From contig JAFMIU010000006.1 in assembly GCA_017853835.1 (NCBI GenBank), forward strand, positions 340 through 64,339: a stretch of 64,000 nucleotides of DNA. The letters are read 5' to 3'. The position numbers and the translations under genes were made by a program. This document shows, in pieces, positions 40,863 to 58,515 of this stretch (the first letter of the stretch is position 1; each line of letters opens with the position of its first letter). The notes under the pieces are model-generated. The model was given only the letters and a program-made list of their open reading frames with translations, searched no databases and had not been told where the DNA came from. This DNA comes from Pirellulales bacterium. GTDB lineage: Bacteria > Planctomycetota > Planctomycetia > Pirellulales > UBA1268.

Positions 40863-41636
40863 ATGCGTCTTGGGTGCTGGTTTTTTATCCTGACGCTGTG
40901 GCTTCCATGGGCGCACGCCTCCGCCGCACAACCGCTTCGGGTGGGCATGGAGCTTTCCTATCCACCCTTCGAGATGACCGATCGTCAGGGCCGGCCGGCG
41001 GGGGTGAGCGTTCGTCTCGCCGAGGCACTGGGCCGGCATCTCGGCCGACCGGTTGAGATCGAAAACATCGCCTTCGACGGATTGATCCCGGCGCTCAAGG
41101 CGGGTCGCATCGACTGCGTGATCTCGTCGATGACGGCCACGCCGGAGCGGGCCAAGTCGATCGCTTTTTCCGCGCCCTATCTCAAGACGGGGCTCGCGCT
41201 CTTGATTGCCGAGCGATCGCCAGTGACCACCGCCGATGATCTCGACGTGGCGGGACGTGTCGTGGCGGTGAAGCAAGGCACGACGGGCCAGCAATGGGCA
41301 ACGTCGCTCACGCAGGCAAAGGTGCTGGTGCTCGACACCGAGGCAGCGGCGGTGCTCGAGGTGCTCCAGGGGCGTGCCGACGCGTTCGTCTACGACTCGA
41401 TGTCGGTCTACACGCATCACCACCGGCATCCAACGAAGACGCGGGCGGCGCTGCGGCCGTTTCGTGAAGAGTCGTGGGCCGTCGGGCTCAGGCTCGGCGA
41501 CGACGAACTCAAGCGGCAGGTGAACGAGTTTCTCGAGGCGTTTCGTGCCGATGGCGGCTTCGATCGGCTCGGCGACGAGTTTCTGGGAGAGCAAAAGGCC
41601 TCGTTCGCGAAGCAGGGCATCCCGTTTTATTTCTAG
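40863..41636 (+). CDS. Polar amino-acid ABC transporter substrate-binding protein
   Basis: Signal peptide. LRVGMELSYPPFEM, type-3 SBP family layout. 257 aa. Confidence 0.8.
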   Translation: MRLGCWFFILTLWLPWAHASAAQPLRVGMELSYPPFEMTDRQGRPAGVSVRLAEALGRHLGRPVEIENIAFDGLIPALKAGRIDCVISSMTATPERAKSIAFSAPYLKTGLALLIAERSPVTTADDLDVAGRVVAVKQGTTGQQWATSLTQAKVLVLDTEAAAVLEVLQGRADAFVYDSMSVYTHHHRHPTKTRAALRPFREESWAVGLRLGDDELKRQVNEFLEAFRADGGFDRLGDEFLGEQKASFAKQGIPFYF

Positions 41637-50469: not shown

Positions 50470-50855
50470 TGGCGGGGCCGAGTCGGCCCGAATGACCATA
50501 CGTTTCCTGATCGAGCAGCCCAGGCTGTATCGGGGAAAACGAGTGTCCATCCGCCAGAACACCCTTGTTTCTGGCTGAATCGCACGACTCCCGGAATTGA
50601 TCCCGGCTGCGCGCGAAAGGTTCGATGAGCCCGGACACGCGTGCGGACGACTCGTCTTCATGCGTGTTCCGGGATCGCATGCCCGGAAGACGAGTTGCTG
50701 GGGCCTTCGGCTCTTTCCGAAGCCCCGGTGCAGCGTAGGCCGAATCGGCTGACCGTCGCGCGACGGTCATGCCTTCGTCGCTGCACCGACACCCATGTCG
50801 GTGTCCATCCACGGAACGGAATCCTCTTGTTCCCTGTGTTCGTGGAGGTCATTCC

Positions 50856-51677
50856 ATGGTCAAGGTAAGTTCATGCGCCCGACTGATCGTCGGGCTTGTT
50901 GTCGGTGTATTCGTCGTGCCCTCGTTCGGGAGTCCGATCGTGTATACCGGAACAGGCACCTCGTCGCTGGGGCATCCGGTCGTGTTTTCGGCCGAGTTCG
51001 TCTTCAACGACGATTTGTTGACGCTGACGTTGTCGAACGAATCGCCGTTCGACACGACGGACGCGGCGGACACGCTGTCGAGTGTCTACTTCGACATTCT
51101 CAGCGGGTCGACGCGGCCGGCGCTCTCCTACGAGGGAGGATCGGGTTTCGTGTACCAGGTGTGGAAGAACGCGGCGGATACGTGCTACTACTACACGCCG
51201 CAGATGTTTTTGCCGGACTGTGATATCCCCAGCGATCTGGGGGCCTTTGCGGACGGTGACGCCACCTGGCAGTTTCGGGTGATGAATTCGGGCACGGCAC
51301 CGATGCTCGGATTCGGGATCGGCACGGTGGGCAACAGCATGCTGTCGCCCAACGGGTTCAATCCGGCGATCGTGGGCCCACCGGGCACTGGGATGATCAA
51401 CTTCGCGATCTATCGCGGGGGGGACATTCAGCCCAACGGGATTCTCAATGGCCGGTTTCTGGTGAAGAACACGGCCACGTTCACGTTTACCGGCGTGACG
51501 GGCTTCGGCGAGGAAGCTCTCGTGGACAAGGTCGTGTTTGGCCTTGGCACCGGGCCAGATTCCACGGTGACGGTGTCGCTGCCCGAGCCTCCACTCGCCG
51601 GCATGGCGGTGGCAAGCCTCGGTAGTTGCGGGATGCTGCTGCGGCGGCGCGGTCTGTCGGCCGTCCGCGACCTCTAG
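50856..51677 (+). CDS. PEP-CTERM-anchored secreted protein
   Basis: GGAGG SD 7 nt upstream. Signal peptide LIVGLVVGVFVVPSFG. C-terminal LPEPPLAGMAVASLGSCGMLLRRRG. Confidence 0.65.
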   Translation: MVKVSSCARLIVGLVVGVFVVPSFGSPIVYTGTGTSSLGHPVVFSAEFVFNDDLLTLTLSNESPFDTTDAADTLSSVYFDILSGSTRPALSYEGGSGFVYQVWKNAADTCYYYTPQMFLPDCDIPSDLGAFADGDATWQFRVMNSGTAPMLGFGIGTVGNSMLSPNGFNPAIVGPPGTGMINFAIYRGGDIQPNGILNGRFLVKNTATFTFTGVTGFGEEALVDKVVFGLGTGPDSTVTVSLPEPPLAGMAVASLGSCGMLLRRRGLSAVRDL

Positions 51678-52410: not shown

Positions 52411-52899
52411 TCACTTCACGGCAACCGGCACCTTCCGCGACGTGCTGACGGCCGACTTCGTGAGGTCGACCGTCAGGATTCCGTTGTCGAACGAGGCCGA
52501 GACCTTCTCCGGATCGACCGGATCGGGCAGCGGGATCGTGCGGCTGAACGCCCCGTAGTGACTCTCGACGTGGGACCAGCCGTTGCCGCCCTTCGACACC
52601 TTCGACTTCTTTTCACCGGAAATCACGAGCCGATCCTCGGTGACATCCACATCGACCGCCTTGGGATCGATGCCTGGCAGCTCAGCCCTCACCTGGATCG
52701 TCGTTGGATCATCAGCGATGTCGATCGCCGGCAGCCACTGCCCAGGCGAGGAGGTCTCGAACCACGTTGGCATCGTGGATGACCGGGTGAACAACCCGTC
52801 GAACAGCCTGTTCATCTCGGCCCGTACATCGGAAAGTGGCCTGGCTGCCAGGGGCTCGAGGCCACTTGATCGCCAGCTCTGAAAGGGTATCAGGACCAT
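52411..52899 (-). CDS. Hsp20/alpha-crystallin small heat-shock protein
   Basis: ELPGIDPKAVDVDVTEDRLVISGEKK...GAFSRTIPLPDPVDPEKVSASFDNGILTVDL. AGGAG SD upstream of ATG 52899. Confidence 0.88.
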   Translation of the reverse strand: MVLIPFQSWRSSGLEPLAARPLSDVRAEMNRLFDGLFTRSSTMPTWFETSSPGQWLPAIDIADDPTTIQVRAELPGIDPKAVDVDVTEDRLVISGEKKSKVSKGGNGWSHVESHYGAFSRTIPLPDPVDPEKVSASFDNGILTVDLTKSAVSTSRKVPVAVK

Positions 52900-53088
52900 G
52901 GGTACGTATCTCCTCTGAGGAAAGAAAAATGGAACCATCCGGTGAGCCGCCCAACACGGCGTCGGTGCGGCGAGAAGCCGCGCGTCCTGGCGGGGTAAGG
53001 ATTCGCAGCGTCCAACTCAAAGGCAAGCAGCATGGGTGATACGAACCACGAATCACACCCGTGGGCTGGAAGTTGCCCAGGCCCCGTG

Positions 53089-54315
53089 TCAATACCGATA
53101 GACCGCGGCAAGGCCGGTTGACGATGGCATCGCCTCACGATCGAGCGCCAACACCTGCCCACGGTGCAACACGACCGTTTCGGCAATCGCTCCGAAGACG
53201 TCCTCACCCGCAGGACGTGAGCTGGACCGTTGAGGCGGCAGATCGGCCTCGGGCACGATGGCCCCCGCAATCAGCCCCGTCCGCGCATCGTAGACCCCTG
53301 GCTCAAACCGGTCCTTCTCGACCAGAAGCGTTGCGACACGGCCGCAGGCGGCGGCTTCACCGATCTCAGACAGGTTGGTCGCGCCACGGCCGCGCACCAC
53401 CGCCGCCTCGAATGCGGCCAACACCATTCCCAGACGATGCTGCCTCACCGCCGTCATGACGGCGGCGGCAGCTGCGGCAAGATCGCATTGAGGTGCCAGG
53501 TGCATGTCCTTGTCGACTCCCTCACCAAGCAACGCGGGGTTGCGTGACAATCGCCGATACACCGCCGCGAGCGGTTTAGGGGCCGCGAGGATCACCGGCA
53601 TGTCGACCGGAAAACCGGCCGACACAAGCCCCCGATCGACGTGCCGCAGAAACGTGATCGTGTCGGTATCGATCTCATCGTGTCGGGATCCAAACCCTCC
53701 GTGGAGTTGCATCCAAGGCGTTCTCATCCGGCGTGTTCGATGTGGCTCGCGCTGCTCTTCCTCGACGATGTCTCCGCGAAACATCGCCCCCAGGGCGGCC
53801 ATCCGGCCCCACGCGGGGGGAAGCGGGGCCGGAACGAACCTCGCCACCTGCCCGTCGGTCACTCGCCCCGCGTACACCCGGGCAAGCCTGCTGGTGAGCA
53901 CAAGCAGCAAAAACTCCTCCGACGCACAGGCCATGCGGAGCAGCGGAAGCGTGTGATACCGCGGTGCAACGACCGCGAGCGGAGGCACGGGCTCCGGGAG
54001 CAAGAACCCGTTCGCCTCGCCGTCGGCGGCGAAAACCACGAGGCCCTCGCTGGTATGCTCCCAAAACGGTGCGTGGTCGGCGAGCGCCTCGAGCGGCGAC
54101 AAAAGACGATCAACCTCGGATGGCCGGCGACCATCGCGGAGGCCCCGCCGAAGCGTCGCGAGGAGCTGACGATAGGTTGGCTGGTCAACCGTGTTGTCGG
54201 GCACGTTGCGGTGGGTCGGCAGATACACCGACAGGCAGGTTCCGTTCGACGGTTCGAGAAACGCTCGCACGACCTCGGGCGCGAAGGGATGGACGGGAAA
54301 GGGCAACGAAGCCAT
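53089..54315 (-). CDS. baeRF-like protein (bacterial homologue of archaeo-eukaryotic release factor eRF1/Pelota fold)
   Basis: N-terminal LSVYLPTHR. Domain-3-like GATNLSEIGEAAACGRVATLLVEKD (compare GAVETLLI of eRF1/Pelota). C-terminal GLAAVYRY (compare GIGAILRY). No GGQ; the equivalent region carries HGGFG. Confidence 0.5.
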   Translation of the reverse strand: MASLPFPVHPFAPEVVRAFLEPSNGTCLSVYLPTHRNVPDNTVDQPTYRQLLATLRRGLRDGRRPSEVDRLLSPLEALADHAPFWEHTSEGLVVFAADGEANGFLLPEPVPPLAVVAPRYHTLPLLRMACASEEFLLLVLTSRLARVYAGRVTDGQVARFVPAPLPPAWGRMAALGAMFRGDIVEEEQREPHRTRRMRTPWMQLHGGFGSRHDEIDTDTITFLRHVDRGLVSAGFPVDMPVILAAPKPLAAVYRRLSRNPALLGEGVDKDMHLAPQCDLAAAAAAVMTAVRQHRLGMVLAAFEAAVVRGRGATNLSEIGEAAACGRVATLLVEKDRFEPGVYDARTGLIAGAIVPEADLPPQRSSSRPAGEDVFGAIAETVVLHRGQVLALDREAMPSSTGLAAVYRY

Positions 54316-55186: not shown

Positions 55187-55864
55187 TCACGTCCCGGCGT
55201 CGTCGTGCAGGTGCCGGGTGAACCAGTCGGAGGCCCTCCGTGCGGACTCGGCGAGCGTTCCAGGCTCCTCGAAGAGATTGCTCGCCCCCGGAATGACATC
55301 GAGTTGCCGGTCCTCGCACCCGATTTCGGCCAGGAAATGGCGGTTCACCGCCAGTCCGTCGAGGTCATCACCGCCAACGATCAGGAGCGTGGGGGCGTGA
55401 ACCGAGCGGAGTTTCCGCCCCGCAAGGTCAAGACGGCCACCACTTGAAACAACCGCTTTTACCGTAGGCTCACACGCGGCTACCGCCAACGCGGCCGCCG
55501 CATCCGTGCCGGCACCGAACAGCCCGATGGACAGGTAACGCAGTTCCTCCCTGCGTTGCGCGAAACGAATCGCCACCAGCAGCCGTTCCGCAAGGAGCGG
55601 AATGTCGACGGTGGTCGCATGATGAGCGGACTCACCGTCGGTCAGAAGGTCGAACACAAGCGTGCTGATCCAGAAATCGTTCAGCACGCCGGCCACTGCG
55701 GCATGGCGATCGCTCGGAAGGCTAGATTCGCTGCCGCGGGCCAAGATGACCATGCCCGTCGGCGTCGCGGGAACGGTCAGACTGCCTGGCAAGGGAATCG
55801 ACCGCCCGTGAGCCCCTTTGGCGGGAACTATCACATCGAAGGTCTCGCAGAGCGGGCTGAGCAT
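55187..55864 (-). CDS. Dienelactone-hydrolase-like alpha/beta-fold protein, apparently lacking nucleophile and His
   Basis: DLH-like collinearity (APTLLIVGGDD, EEPGTL). The expected G-x-S-x-G elbow reads GAGTD and the expected PGA-x-H-x-F reads PGASNLF. Its ATG shares one base with the HPF stop (TGATG). Confidence 0.65.
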   Translation of the reverse strand: MLSPLCETFDVIVPAKGAHGRSIPLPGSLTVPATPTGMVILARGSESSLPSDRHAAVAGVLNDFWISTLVFDLLTDGESAHHATTVDIPLLAERLLVAIRFAQRREELRYLSIGLFGAGTDAAAALAVAACEPTVKAVVSSGGRLDLAGRKLRSVHAPTLLIVGGDDLDGLAVNRHFLAEIGCEDRQLDVIPGASNLFEEPGTLAESARRASDWFTRHLHDDAGT

Positions 55865-56454
55865 CACGGCTCCTTGGACGAGGGATGAACGGGGTGGTGA
55901 CGATGCGGATGGGCGAGGTGCACGACGGTCGCCTGAGGCCCGTTGTCGCCGTCCTCCACCGTGAAGACCACCTCCGATCCGCGATCGATCATTTGAAACT
56001 CGTCGTCGCTCATGGCGTGGTGGTGGAAATACACCTCTCGACCGTCGGGCGTGACAATGAAACCATACCCCTGAAGCGGAAAGATCTGCGAAATCTCGCC
56101 GTGAAGACGGGGCACGTGGGCCTTGTCTTCGCCCCGCATTCGCCGAACATGGTCTTCGAGCCGCCTGCGAGCCGCATCGAAGGCGTCTCGCATCGCCACG
56201 TAGACGTCCTCGTGGGCACGATTCTGGTGGTGGTCATGGTTCACCACGATCTCCCCACCTGGCATCAGTATGTCAACTCGCACCGAGTAGAGGTTCCCCG
56301 CACGATGACGGCGGTGCGGCATCGCCACCACCACGTGGCAGCCGGTGATCTGGGACGAAAACCGCTCGAGCTGGGCAACATGGTCAAGGGCGGCTTCCCG
56401 CACCGCATCATCAATGGGAATACCGTCAAACGACACCTCGGGCTGGGTCTGCAT
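55864..56454 (-). CDS. HPF/RaiA-family ribosome-associated factor fused to a cold-shock (CSD/OB) domain
   Basis: The N-half matches the YfiA/HPF pattern (…YSVRVDILMPGGEIVV…EDVYVAMRDAFDAARRRLE). The C-half is GYGFIVTPDGREVYFHHHAMSDDEFQMIDRGSEVVFTVEDGDNGPQATVV (CspA-like). AAGGAG SD 8 nt upstream. Confidence 0.8.
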   Translation of the reverse strand: MQTQPEVSFDGIPIDDAVREAALDHVAQLERFSSQITGCHVVVAMPHRRHRAGNLYSVRVDILMPGGEIVVNHDHHQNRAHEDVYVAMRDAFDAARRRLEDHVRRMRGEDKAHVPRLHGEISQIFPLQGYGFIVTPDGREVYFHHHAMSDDEFQMIDRGSEVVFTVEDGDNGPQATVVHLAHPHRHHPVHPSSKEP

Positions 56455-56908
56455 GGTGAGGCTCCTTACGGGGCAGGGATTTACGTTTCGGACGACATGC
56501 CGGCGGCTCGGACAACGAGAAGACGATCATCTCCTCGCCGGTGATTGTTGAGATGTCGTGGTGCACGCTCACGAGCTTCACACCAACCGCCATCTCCACG
56601 ATCTCGGCCAGCTTGGAACGACCTACCGCGACCATGTGGGCGCGCATCTGCTTGAGCAAGGAGCGACCATTGCCATTGCCATTGCCATTGCCGCCCGTCT
56701 TCACATCCCCGTCGTCGCCGACGCCGGCTGACACCGGCGGAGCGAGCAACTGTCGCTCCGCCGGTGTCAGCACCCCCTGAAGTCGCACGACCAGCAAATT
56801 GCCAACCAAGTGGGAGTGGATGTCTCGCGGGCCTCGGCCGACGAACTCCTGCTGAAACCGGGAAATGCCGTCGCACACAGCAGCTTCGATCTCGCCCTGG
56901 GATTTCAT
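56426..56908 (-). CDS. DUF2294 (MpsC-like) protein with Gly/Asn-repeat insertion
   Basis: MKSQGEIEAAVCDGISRFQQEFVGRGPRDIHSHLVGNLLVVRLQGVLTPAERQL...LVSVHHDISTITGEEMIVFSL. GGAGAA SD. Internal ATG 56908 of the track ORF. Confidence 0.75.
   Translation of the reverse strand: MKSQGEIEAAVCDGISRFQQEFVGRGPRDIHSHLVGNLLVVRLQGVLTPAERQLLAPPVSAGVGDDGDVKTGGNGNGNGNGRSLLKQMRAHMVAVGRSKLAEIVEMAVGVKLVSVHHDISTITGEEMIVFSLSEPPACRPKRKSLPRKEPHHADPARGVV
56667..56692. repeat. Hexanucleotide microsatellite (CCATTG)x4 inside DUF2294 coding sequence, encoding (NG)4
   Basis: ccattgccattgccattgccattgcc read directly from the sequence. Confidence 0.9.
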
Positions 56909-56939
56909 GCGACTTCTCCGGAGTGAGGGTGGACGAATG

Positions 56940-57188
56940 TCACGAAACGCGATGGCCAGCGGCGCTGGGCACGATCGTTCCATCGACGGTGACCGCGTGG
57001 GCACCGTTGCCATTGCAAATGCGATCCCACACCTCGCGACGATGGATTGGCATCCGAGAGTCGGCGGTAAAACCCAGCCGCACACGGCCCTGATCGATCT
57101 GGAGCACCGTGATCTCCAGAACGATTTCGAGGTCATGAGGCTGAGCGATCACCACACTTTCGCGATTCTTCCTGGTCAGTACCAACAT
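56940..57188 (-). CDS. csrA: Carbon storage regulator CsrA/RsmA homologue with C-terminal extension
   Basis: MLVLTRKNRESVVI...ITVLQIDQGRVRLGFTADSRMPIHRREVWDRI is collinear with the E. coli and B. subtilis CsrA sequences as recalled from memory (MLxLxR, GxxV(R/K)(I/L)G, HRxE). AGGUGA SD 4 nt upstream. Confidence 0.8.
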   Translation of the reverse strand: MLVLTRKNRESVVIAQPHDLEIVLEITVLQIDQGRVRLGFTADSRMPIHRREVWDRICNGNGAHAVTVDGTIVPSAAGHRVS

Positions 57189-57717
57189 ATGTCACCTTCT
57201 TCATGGCTGTGAGTCCCTTCGGATAGTAACCCCGCCGGACGGATCCATGGCCGTCCGCGCCATCGACATGGAAGTGGTCATCGACGGCAACGCCGAATGC
57301 CGCCGGGTGCCCGCCGAGCACGATGAGATCGATCGCCGCCTCCGTCGTGCAGGTCTTGAAAAGGCTACCGGTGGCCGTATCGATGTGGGTCGCCACAGCC
57401 CCCACCACCACGCCGGAGTGAGCCCGAACATGGTCGCGAAGGGCCTCGAACGACGACTCGACGAGCGAACGGTGCCAGGCGACAACGCGGTCATACCCAG
57501 AGGCCGACATCACGAGTTGGCGTTCCATCCCTGAGAGTGCCGTATGGATCGTGATCACGACCGAGGACGCCCCTGAGGAGATGGCGATGCTCCGTGGAAG
57601 GCGACCGAGGAGTCGCGCCTCGAAATCGCCGACGGCCCATGCGATCTGCCGCGCCCGGCGGAGCGCATCGTGACCGGCCTGGCGAGGGGCACGAACAGCA
57701 GCGGAAAGAGGAGACAT
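57133..57717 (-). CDS. Divergent DUF2294-like protein with ~70-aa C-terminal extension overlapping the csrA start
   Basis: GRLPRSIAISSGASSVVITIHTALSGMERQL...ATHIDTATGSLF parallels the GRGPRDI...LTPAE(R/Q)QL...HHDISTxTGE pattern of the two neighbouring paralogues. Start is ATG 57717 or GTG 57729. Confidence 0.5.
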   Translation of the reverse strand: MSPLSAAVRAPRQAGHDALRRARQIAWAVGDFEARLLGRLPRSIAISSGASSVVITIHTALSGMERQLVMSASGYDRVVAWHRSLVESSFEALRDHVRAHSGVVVGAVATHIDTATGSLFKTCTTEAAIDLIVLGGHPAAFGVAVDDHFHVDGADGHGSVRRGYYPKGLTAMKKVTYVGTDQEESRKCGDRSAS

Positions 57718-57794
57718 GGGCGGCAGCACTCCGGGGGCGAGGGTGAGGTCGGTTTGAAGATCGCGTACCGGGTGCCAACGCGTCGTTCTGGAAT

Positions 57795-57851
57795 GAAAAC
57801 GAAAAAAGCCGGCGAGGGAGGCTGCCCGTGGGCCTGCTCTCTCACCGGCTT
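57795..57851 (-). terminator. Strong Rho-independent terminator (minus strand)
   Basis: RNA: AAGCCGGUGAGAGAG-(16 nt)-CUCCCUCGCCGGCUU followed by UUUUCGUUUUC. 15-bp stem with one G.U pair and one mismatch. Confidence 0.65.
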
Positions 57852-57948
57852 ACGCTGCGCTGGACCGCCGGCTACGCCGGCCTGCCCCTCGACTCGTCTT
57901 CCGCGAAATGTTGTTTTTGCCGAGTTTGAGACTGGTTTTCGCAACCAT
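57850..57948 (-). other. 32-codon basic sORF or untranslated leader/sRNA between promoter and terminator
   Basis: ATG 57948 ... TAA 57852..57850 encodes MVAKTSLKLGKNNISRKTSRGAGRRSRRSSAA. Locally AT-rich with atypical AAA/AAC codons. The SD is poor (GAGA abuts the ATG). Confidence 0.3.
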
Positions 57949-57967
57949 TCTCGCTTCGACGTTCGCG

Positions 57968-57995
57968 ATTATACGTGGCGATCTGGGCAAGGCAA
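57968..57995 (-). promoter_or_regulatory. Sigma70-like promoter (minus strand): TTGCCT - 16 nt - TATAAT
   Basis: A perfect TATAAT hexamer (57973..57968) in a high-GC context, with TTGCCT at 57995..57990. Confidence 0.45.
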
Positions 57996-58092
57996 GAAGA
58001 CTCTGCGGGCGATCAACAGTCATTGAAGCCACCTCCACTGAAATGACGAACGAATACCACAACACCCCCCCCTCGGGGGGCTTCTCCGCAGG

Positions 58093-58515
58093 ATGCCAGA
58101 CATGCGATCCCGAGGCGAAATCGAGGCGGCGGTCTGCAGTGCGGTGGCCCGCTTCCAGCAGGATTACATGGGGCGTGGCCCGCGAGACATCCAGGCCCAT
58201 CTGATCGACGACACGCTCGTCGTGCACCTGCGTGGCGTGCTCTCAGCAGCCGAACAGCGATTGATCGATCGCGTCGATGGCTCAAATGGCCGTGGGGCTG
58301 ATCTCTTGAAGCAGCTGCGCAGTCATCTCGTGCTCACGGGCCGGCCAGTGCTCGAGGAACTCGTGGCTGTTGCCACCGGCGCGCGGCCGATCACCATGCA
58401 CCACGATATCAGCACGGCCACGGGTGAGGAAGTGATCGTGGTCACGCTGGCGGCCGCCCCCGTCCTCCGCACTCGACGAGACGCGGCCAAGGTGTCCCAA
58501 CGGCCACCATCATGA
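58093..58515 (+). CDS. DUF2294 (MpsC-like) protein
   Basis: RSRGEIEAAVCSAVARFQQDYMGRGPRDIQAHLIDDTLVVHLRGVLSAAEQRL...ITMHHDISTATGEEVIVVTL. Close paralogue of 56426..56908. Confidence 0.75.
   Translation: MPDMRSRGEIEAAVCSAVARFQQDYMGRGPRDIQAHLIDDTLVVHLRGVLSAAEQRLIDRVDGSNGRGADLLKQLRSHLVLTGRPVLEELVAVATGARPITMHHDISTATGEEVIVVTLAAAPVLRTRRDAAKVSQRPPS

Follow-up and report, generated by a model that had tools for sequence, protein, structure and literature searches.

A conserved leader RNA that probably switches transcription of the csrA operon in freshwater Planctomycetes, and its sister copy before a surface-protein gene

The window, by which we mean the whole 64,000-nucleotide stretch that was analysed, originates from a freshwater metagenome and carries on its minus strand an operon in which csrA lies between two MpsC-type genes and is followed by a gene for HPF fused to a cold-shock domain; a hydrolase gene comes next in minus-strand gene order. 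CsrA is a global post-transcriptional regulator. To our knowledge, its control has hardly been described outside Proteobacteria and Firmicutes, and we know of almost no described regulatory RNAs in Planctomycetes. An initial annotation of positions 57795-57995, immediately upstream of the operon, had pointed to a promoter, a 32-codon basic ORF and a terminator, and had read them as a leader-peptide attenuator or, failing that, as a small RNA or a tiny basic protein. The features of this region are as follows.

55864..57717, minus strand: operon MpsC-like/csrA/MpsC/HPF (Pfam; synteny kept in homologues)
57717-57133, minus strand: MpsC-like/DUF2294 gene (Pfam)
57188-56940, minus strand: csrA, overlapping the preceding ORF (Pfam)
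56908-56426, minus strand: second MpsC gene (Pfam)
56454-55864, minus strand: gene for HPF fused to a cold-shock domain (Pfam)
57718..57794, minus strand: spacer from terminator to operon ATG, with Shine-Dalgarno GGAG at 57732-57729 (homologue spacer comparison)
57795..57851, minus strand: intrinsic terminator, a 17-bp stem-loop (57851-57808) followed by a U-tract (folds; present in all homologues)
57846..57903, minus strand: conserved core hairpin, P0 to P3 (alignments A1 and A3 with RNAalifold)
57850..57948, minus strand: 32-codon ORF, ATG at 57948 to TAA at 57852-57850, judged not to be a gene because its presence, frame and start codon are unconserved
57904..57918, minus strand: A-rich single-stranded linker AAAAACAACAUUUCG (alignment A3; unpaired in folds)
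57919..57960, minus strand: SL1, a 5' hairpin of variable sequence and kept structure (per-sequence folds)
57968..57973, minus strand: -10 hexamer TATAAT, with a predicted transcription start at ~57962-57960 (promoter scan)
57990..57995, minus strand: -35 hexamer TTGCCT (promoter scan; TTGCNT at the matching position in homologues)
58093..58515, plus strand: divergent MpsC/DUF2294 gene, found upstream of the RNA in most loci (Pfam)

The individual elements of the initial annotation are present as described. The promoter, TTGCCT-16 nt-TATAAT, occupies 57995..57968 on the minus strand, in a promoter scan that returned 2 such sites in 3.5 kb where 0.7 would be expected. From the ATG at 57948 the ORF runs for 32 codons, and the AA of the closing TAA begins the terminator stem (AAGCCGGUGAGAGAG...CUCCCUCGCCGGCUU), which places the stop codon inside the stem; the U-tract UUUUUUCGUUUUC (57807-57795) follows, and the operon start at 57717, given as ~80 nt further on, is 84 nt past it. 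The unit had also been called AT-richer than its surroundings, which is correct for the 5' half (GC 0.46 at 57904-57962) and incorrect for the core (0.74), the whole window being at 0.655. On folding, the terminator hairpin alone gave -30.9 kcal/mol (z -3.0), and the 173-nt unit gave -74.3 kcal/mol (z -4.0); the loop of the terminator, at more than 8 nt, is the sole reason why a pattern scanner overlooked it. A tRNA/tmRNA scan gave no match, and Pfam matched neither the 32-aa peptide nor a longer ORF of 125 aa that runs through the region.

To evaluate conservation, relatives were collected through the neighbouring protein and through the RNA itself. A first genome scan with the MpsC-like protein yielded no confirmed relative. 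Homologues of this protein with 53-62% amino-acid identity lie on contigs of matching gene order, and promoter, RNA and terminator were kept in 8 of 8 distinct orthologous intergenic regions found through it. The block GGAAGACGAGTCGAGGGGCAG - hairpin - GGTCCGTCGCAGCGTAAGCCGG is conserved far beyond the proteins, RNA pairwise identity being ~80%, whereas the MpsC-like protein drops to 31-45%. Scanning with an exact pattern detected one copy each in 39 species-level Planctomycetota genomes and the same RNA in 85 metagenome contigs; since the loci were partly ascertained by exact pattern, the apparent invariance of 27 core positions is inflated. The record labels of the 39 genomes read Planctomycetia, Pirellulales or Planctomycetaceae, apart from a number with other labels, which are taken to be mislabelled bins. 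In 41 of 47 distinct homologues, a TATAAT, TATACT or TAGAAT keeps constant spacing to the RNA, the -35 hexamer TTGCNT often has an A/T-rich GGAAAATTTT stretch just before it, and the predicted transcripts measure 153-186 nt, the unit of the window being ~160 nt. Accordingly, the arrangement of promoter, RNA and terminator is more than chance, since it recurs in every orthologous locus examined; the short ORF, which had been counted as part of it, does not.

An ORF that begins with ATG and ends at the invariant TAA occurs in only 4 of the 47 homologues, at least 24 of them contain an in-frame stop within the RNA, and most lack an ATG. Homologues that do have ORFs read the conserved core in different frames (KTSRGAG versus EDESRGSP), because hairpin lengths differ by numbers that are not multiples of three; P3, for instance, varies by 1-5 nt. 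In the window itself, no Shine-Dalgarno sequence was found upstream of the ATG, which lies ~13 nt from the predicted start, and the peptide is without a family match. These observations bear on the idea that a ribosome translating the 32 codons as far as the TAA would melt the terminator. The window does contain the ORF, and its stop codon does lie inside the terminator stem, but since the ORF is rare, stop-ridden and frame-shifting among homologues, both the leader-peptide and the small-protein ideas are rejected, and we regard ribosome-dependent attenuation here as very improbable. Leader-peptide attenuators of the trp, his and pheA type share with this genome, and with this genome only, the succession of promoter, short ORF and terminator before an operon; here, however, the ORF is missing or out of frame in relatives, regulatory codons are absent, and there is no conserved 1:2/2:3/3:4 pairing scheme. 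An upstream segment, GGCCGGCGTAGCCGGCGG, had been thought able to pair with either terminator arm. It proved to be a hairpin of its own (P3), which covaries to CCGAC/GUCGG in two homologues (L038 and L057) that have lost the complementarity to the terminator, so that the alternative pairing is rejected as well. What stands of the initial proposals is an RNA that does not code for protein and has a promoter and a terminator of its own, most likely a transcription attenuator of the csrA operon, whose decision would depend on RNA structure and a ligand instead of a translating ribosome. A GC-rich non-coding RNA can therefore give rise, incidentally, to what looks like a textbook leader peptide.

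The stretch is a conserved, non-coding, structured leader RNA of ~160 nt, which we term type A. Its 5' hairpin, SL1, varies in sequence while keeping its structure, with changes on both sides in 5 of the 7 pairs of the outer stem. Beyond the A-rich linker, the core hairpin is built from P0 (CGG/CCG), a loop (AAG/AAG), P1 (ACG/CGU) and a second loop (AGU/CAG), followed distally by P1b/P2 (CGA-G-GGGC/GUCC-G-UCG) and P3 (CCGGC..GCCGG). Alignment A3 supports this pairing in 93% of cells, compared with 30-46% when the partners are slid, and holds 10 pairs with compensatory changes on both sides; none of 500 shuffles reached the observed values. The conserved G-U pairs identify the minus strand as the functional one. 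Compensatory changes among homologues are also seen in the upper terminator stem. Throughout the core, the invariant nucleotides are concentrated in the internal loops and the helices vary with compensation.

The base of the core hairpin overlaps the terminator. P0 is formed by the invariant CGG (57903-57901) of CGGAAG with the CCG (57848-46) of AAGCCGG, where the terminator stem starts, so that the 3' strand of P0 lies within AAGCCG, with which the terminator begins; the pairing joins the consensus fold once the 3' arm of the terminator is left out. P0 comprises 3-4 bp and is invariant, hence beyond a covariation test, and it overlaps the 5' arm of the terminator both in type A and in the paralogous type B described below. 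The spacing CGU-ARG-CCG is common to the two types despite their differing terminator sequences.

Neither the window nor any of 16 homologous loci reached the gathering score of a family in Rfam 15, with raiA, ykkC, c-di-GMP, CsrB/Rsm and 6S among the families covered, and at E up to 10 the region returned chance microRNA matches only. Nor was a description of the element found in the literature searched on CsrA in Planctomycetes, on DUF2294, or on exosortase together with riboswitches, or in two large surveys of RNA motifs. The type A leader is thus a member of a new, undescribed RNA family of Planctomycetes.

When a covariance model of the type A core (model R1) was applied to the 64 kb, it detected a second copy on the plus strand, which we call type B.

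50638..50855, plus strand: type B leader, core 50684-50742, model match 50667-50784 (covariance models R1 and R2)
50856..51677, plus strand: gene for an XDD4 family exosortase-dependent (PEP-CTERM) surface protein (NCBIfam NF045504, E 1e-43)

This copy scored 35 bits (E 2e-9) with model R1 and 82 bits (E 4e-20) with model R2; a type B model, searched back over the 64 kb, reached type A at E 2e-8, and the two are the only copies there. A weak model match at 41456-41561 was set aside as chance, since it lies inside an ORF and lacks the core. Full-length secondary copies were found with the covariance model in eleven loci. The two types have the base of the hairpin in common (CGGAAGACGAGU...CAGCGUARGCCG); type B shares CGGAAGACGAGU...CAGCGUAGGCCG and then differs in the distal helix, which has compensatory changes of its own. 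Its P0 is UCGG/CCGA (RNAalifold), and the CCG of P0 is here too part of the terminator, for which type B has a sequence of its own, AGGCCG...CGGCCUUUUUU. The copy in the window has kept the sensor and lost the U-tract terminator, which indicates that conservation falls on the sensor and variation on the expression platform. The core of this copy is preceded by a segment, ACGACUCGUCUUC (50647-50660), that shows complementarity to the core's 5' strand.

The genes that follow type B encode XDD4 family exosortase-dependent surface proteins. When XDD4 homologues were fetched through the protein alone, type B was present in 3 of 3 lineages, ending ~75 nt upstream of the ORF, and two of these lineages had no csrA operon within the retrieved ±4 kb. 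On this positional evidence, we propose that the type B leader controls the XDD4 gene. Tandem XDD4-type genes, each with a type B leader, were seen at four loci (L137 5915-7231, L074 5852-7170, L025 5160-6498 and L147 3800-5096), one tandem subtype having CCG for CAG in the second loop and a weaker CUUCUUU tract. In several lineages the XDD4 pair shares its strand with the csrA leader and precedes it by 4-5.5 kb.

The position of type A relative to its downstream genes is equally regular. The MpsC-like gene lies immediately downstream on the same strand at 35 of the 39 genome loci, the remainder being two that end too soon and two that precede a different gene, and the same arrangement holds for 81 of the 84 metagenome loci whose downstream sequence is long enough for an assessment, csrA nearly always standing behind. 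Four loci (L031, L088, L099 and L138) have the MpsC-like gene with no csrA found behind it. The gap from U-tract to ATG ranges across homologues from 25 to 123 nt (median 53) and is 25-38 nt, with a good Shine-Dalgarno sequence, in about ten lineages. Because many of the spacers leave too little space for a second promoter, and no such promoter is conserved, the operon appears to be read through the terminator. A sigma-54-like TGGCAC-N5-ACGC (57775-57760) was considered as a separate operon promoter and rejected as unconserved. Among the GGA sites of type A, only the Shine-Dalgarno GGAG is constant near the ATG.

Other genes may occupy the downstream position. In four exceptional loci (L043, L047, L095 and L096), a variant of the RNA precedes, by ~40 nt and on the same strand, the gene for a 640-aa membrane protein that weakly resembles GT-C arabinofuranosyltransferases. 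At another locus, L058, the type A RNA directly precedes csrA on the same strand; the MpsC-like ORF there (1385-1491 and downstream) is reduced to a short remnant overlapping csrA. As in cis-regulatory leaders, the element lies upstream on the same strand in many genomes, and in type B leader and ORF are on one transcript. Together, these placements show a linkage in cis between the type A leader and its downstream gene.

Expression was evaluated from metatranscriptomes, in the form of assembled, unstranded contigs of mostly low depth. Metatranscriptome X4 contains a 1012-nt contig covering 50638-51649 at a depth of 21.9, with zero coverage upstream, showing that the type B leader and the XDD4 ORF are co-transcribed as one abundant transcript that starts near 50638. 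The XDD4 mRNA is ~ten times deeper in X4 than its neighbours. For type A, the window is represented by a single contig (57771-58001, depth 2) that spans both promoter and terminator. At a homologous locus, L044, four metatranscriptomes have contigs that extend over the terminator into the start of the ORF, and contigs in two runs, among them 2284-2519, cross the promoter. These type A contigs are suggestive of read-through; since two of them, the one in the window and L044 2284-2519, also span the predicted promoter, they may derive from carried-over DNA or from transcription that begins upstream or is antisense. Two unrelated metatranscriptomes, one from a fish gut and one from a lake, share read-length contig ends at L044 within 1 nt (2146/2147 to 2296/2297), perhaps the sign of a discrete RNA end located in the core hairpin or shortly within the ORF.

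We consider it likely that type A is a cis-acting leader RNA that controls the csrA operon through a hairpin/terminator switch held by a candidate ligand. From the conserved arrangement we infer the following course. Type A would be transcribed from the sigma-70-like promoter at 57995-57968, with a start at the predicted site, and would fold into the 5' hairpin, the A-rich linker, the irregular core hairpin and the strong terminator 84 nt before the operon, and the MpsC-like/csrA/MpsC/HPF operon would be expressed when polymerase reads through that terminator. The decision would fall at the base of the core hairpin, where the CGG at 57903-57901 may pair with the CCG at 57848-46 that also starts the terminator; because this CCG is common to both, hairpin closure and formation of the terminator base would exclude each other. 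A ligand that holds P0 and the AAG/AAG and AGU/CAG loops closed would leave no terminator beside the U-tract, and RNA polymerase would continue, whereas without it the far more stable terminator would win. It counts against this course that P0 is so short and that, thermodynamically, the terminator (-31 kcal/mol) always wins unless P0 is clamped. The putative ligand is about equally likely to be a small molecule or an RNA-binding protein, the latter being CsrA or the neighbouring DUF2294/MpsC.

The small-molecule version, a true riboswitch in which the two internal loops bind a compound, perhaps a signalling nucleotide with a part in surface or biofilm functions, and P0 closes for read-through, is a possible but tentative reading. 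In its favour, the invariant nucleotides are concentrated in internal loops between helices that vary with compensation, and the same sensor stands, with varying expression platforms, before unrelated genes: the csrA/HPF operon, the XDD4 surface proteins and the glycosyltransferase-like protein. The conserved part, however, amounts to ~24 nt, which is equally like a protein-binding hairpin, no known Rfam aptamer was matched, and the ligand is hypothetical. Control by a protein we hold to be just as uncertain, whether by CsrA on the invariant CGGA, which would keep P0 open and favour termination (negative autoregulation), or by the DUF2294/MpsC protein encoded next door, which would clamp the hairpin as an antiterminator in the way LicT acts on RAT. 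Here csrA and three MpsC paralogues are the constant neighbours of type A, type B leaders have the classical two-site CsrA layout (GCAGCGGAYGCCGC, with GGA in a hairpin loop, and CAGCGGAG at the Shine-Dalgarno sequence), and a small imperfect hairpin that overlaps a terminator matches the RAT design. Yet CsrA sites normally need a GGA in a small loop and not a 24-nt double-loop hairpin, type A has no second conserved GGA, some contigs that carry type B lack any MpsC gene within 4 kb, and the MpsC-like fold has no solved relative that binds RNA.

It is considerably less probable that the ~160-nt RNA is a free-standing small RNA that acts in trans, for example by sequestering CsrA as CsrB and RsmZ do or by pairing with mRNAs; in this weaker alternative, the position beside csrA would reflect shared function and not control in cis. 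A consensus promoter of its own, an A/T-rich stretch upstream of it, a stabilising 5' hairpin and a strong terminator with 6-7 U would all suit such an RNA; the invariant GGA of CGGAAG is single-stranded when the terminator is formed, and because RNAs of this size are lost in standard metatranscriptome libraries, absence from contigs is uninformative. The counts of GGA do not favour it: the RNA of the window has 1 and the others 1-5, about as expected from composition, with a single invariant site, and a CsrB-like CsrA sponge was rejected since GGA is neither enriched nor conserved beyond that site. Moreover, the RNA lies nearly always in sense orientation immediately upstream of a gene, in three gene contexts and at many loci with no room for another promoter, its paralogous copy is part of an mRNA, and contigs cross the type A terminator. 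The terminated product could be a stand-alone small RNA, but this would leave the strict same-strand placement upstream unexplained.

The cis-acting switch that we favour has counterparts among known systems. The RAT/terminator switches of BglG, SacY and LicT, and more loosely those of ANTAR proteins, likewise have an imperfect leader hairpin with two internal loops, whose 3' basal strand is the 5' arm of a terminator and whose closure, as proposed for type A, prevents termination. Unlike them, type A lacks sequence likeness, is longer and carries an extra 5' hairpin; it is a single long hairpin with 3x3 loops, without the RAT consensus or dual hexaloop hairpins, and Pfam detected no gene for a PRD-containing or ANTAR protein in the locus, the neighbours being MpsC, CsrA and HPF-CSD. 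ON riboswitches such as adenine pbuE also have a sensor upstream on the same strand, whose closing helix competes with a terminator as P0 is proposed to do, and resemble the family further in their several gene contexts and variable expression platforms. The raiA motif, found upstream of hibernation-factor genes, is comparable in its association with an HPF-containing operon, but it gave no Rfam match even at E up to 10, and the conserved part here is the ~24-nt base of a single hairpin. The CsrB, CsrC and RsmX/Y/Z RNAs are short, have their own promoter, a rho-independent terminator, a link to csrA and GGA motifs; they carry 7-22 of these, mostly in hairpin loops, in contrast to the one invariant GGA here, where the RNA is physically fused to the leader of an operon and its paralogue is part of an mRNA.

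The leader family, with more than 120 examples in two paralogous types, ties the csrA/DUF2294/hibernation-factor operon to abundant exosortase-dependent surface proteins and offers a handle on how translation control is coupled to cell-surface remodelling in these bacteria. The hairpin base CGG-AAG-ACG-AGU...CAG-CGU-ARG-CCG might, with the reserve already expressed for the small-molecule reading, be a candidate aptamer and define a new riboswitch class restricted to Planctomycetia; if so, a small molecule or signalling nucleotide would jointly switch on the csrA/hibernation operon, the exosortase-dependent surface proteins and a membrane glycosyltransferase. As an orphan riboswitch or antiterminator candidate, the hairpin is testable in vitro, and it provides an initial clue to the function of the DUF2294/MpsC proteins on either side of csrA.

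Several further observations concern these neighbours. The start of csrA overlaps the end of the MpsC-like ORF by 56 nt (57133-57188), an overlap kept in the homologues inspected, which together with the three DUF2294/MpsC paralogues around csrA suggests translational coupling and perhaps a protein partner for CsrA; FliW partners CsrA in Bacillus. The N-terminal domain of the MpsC-like protein has a confident predicted model, for which Foldseek against the PDB and PDB sequence searches returned no informative relative, and an exact-protein look-up of the divergent MpsC gave no record. Genes for HSP20 (52411-52938, minus strand) and a bacterial eRF1-like protein of baeRF family 3 (53089-54315, minus strand) are grouped with csrA and the HPF-cold-shock fusion; this cluster, which recurs in related contigs, resembles an island for stress or translation arrest. 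The second MpsC gene contains, at ~56590-56700 (minus strand), a Gly-Asn repeat, GGNGNGNGNG, exactly where the DNA assemblies of run X1 break, and the length of the repeat may be variable or mis-assembled. The leader of the divergent MpsC gene contains a C6/G8 hairpin, CCCCCCGAGGGGGGGG, at 58060-58085, and homologues have at this site an inverted repeat, CCCCACC...GGTGGGG, that is sometimes able to pair with the Shine-Dalgarno sequence.
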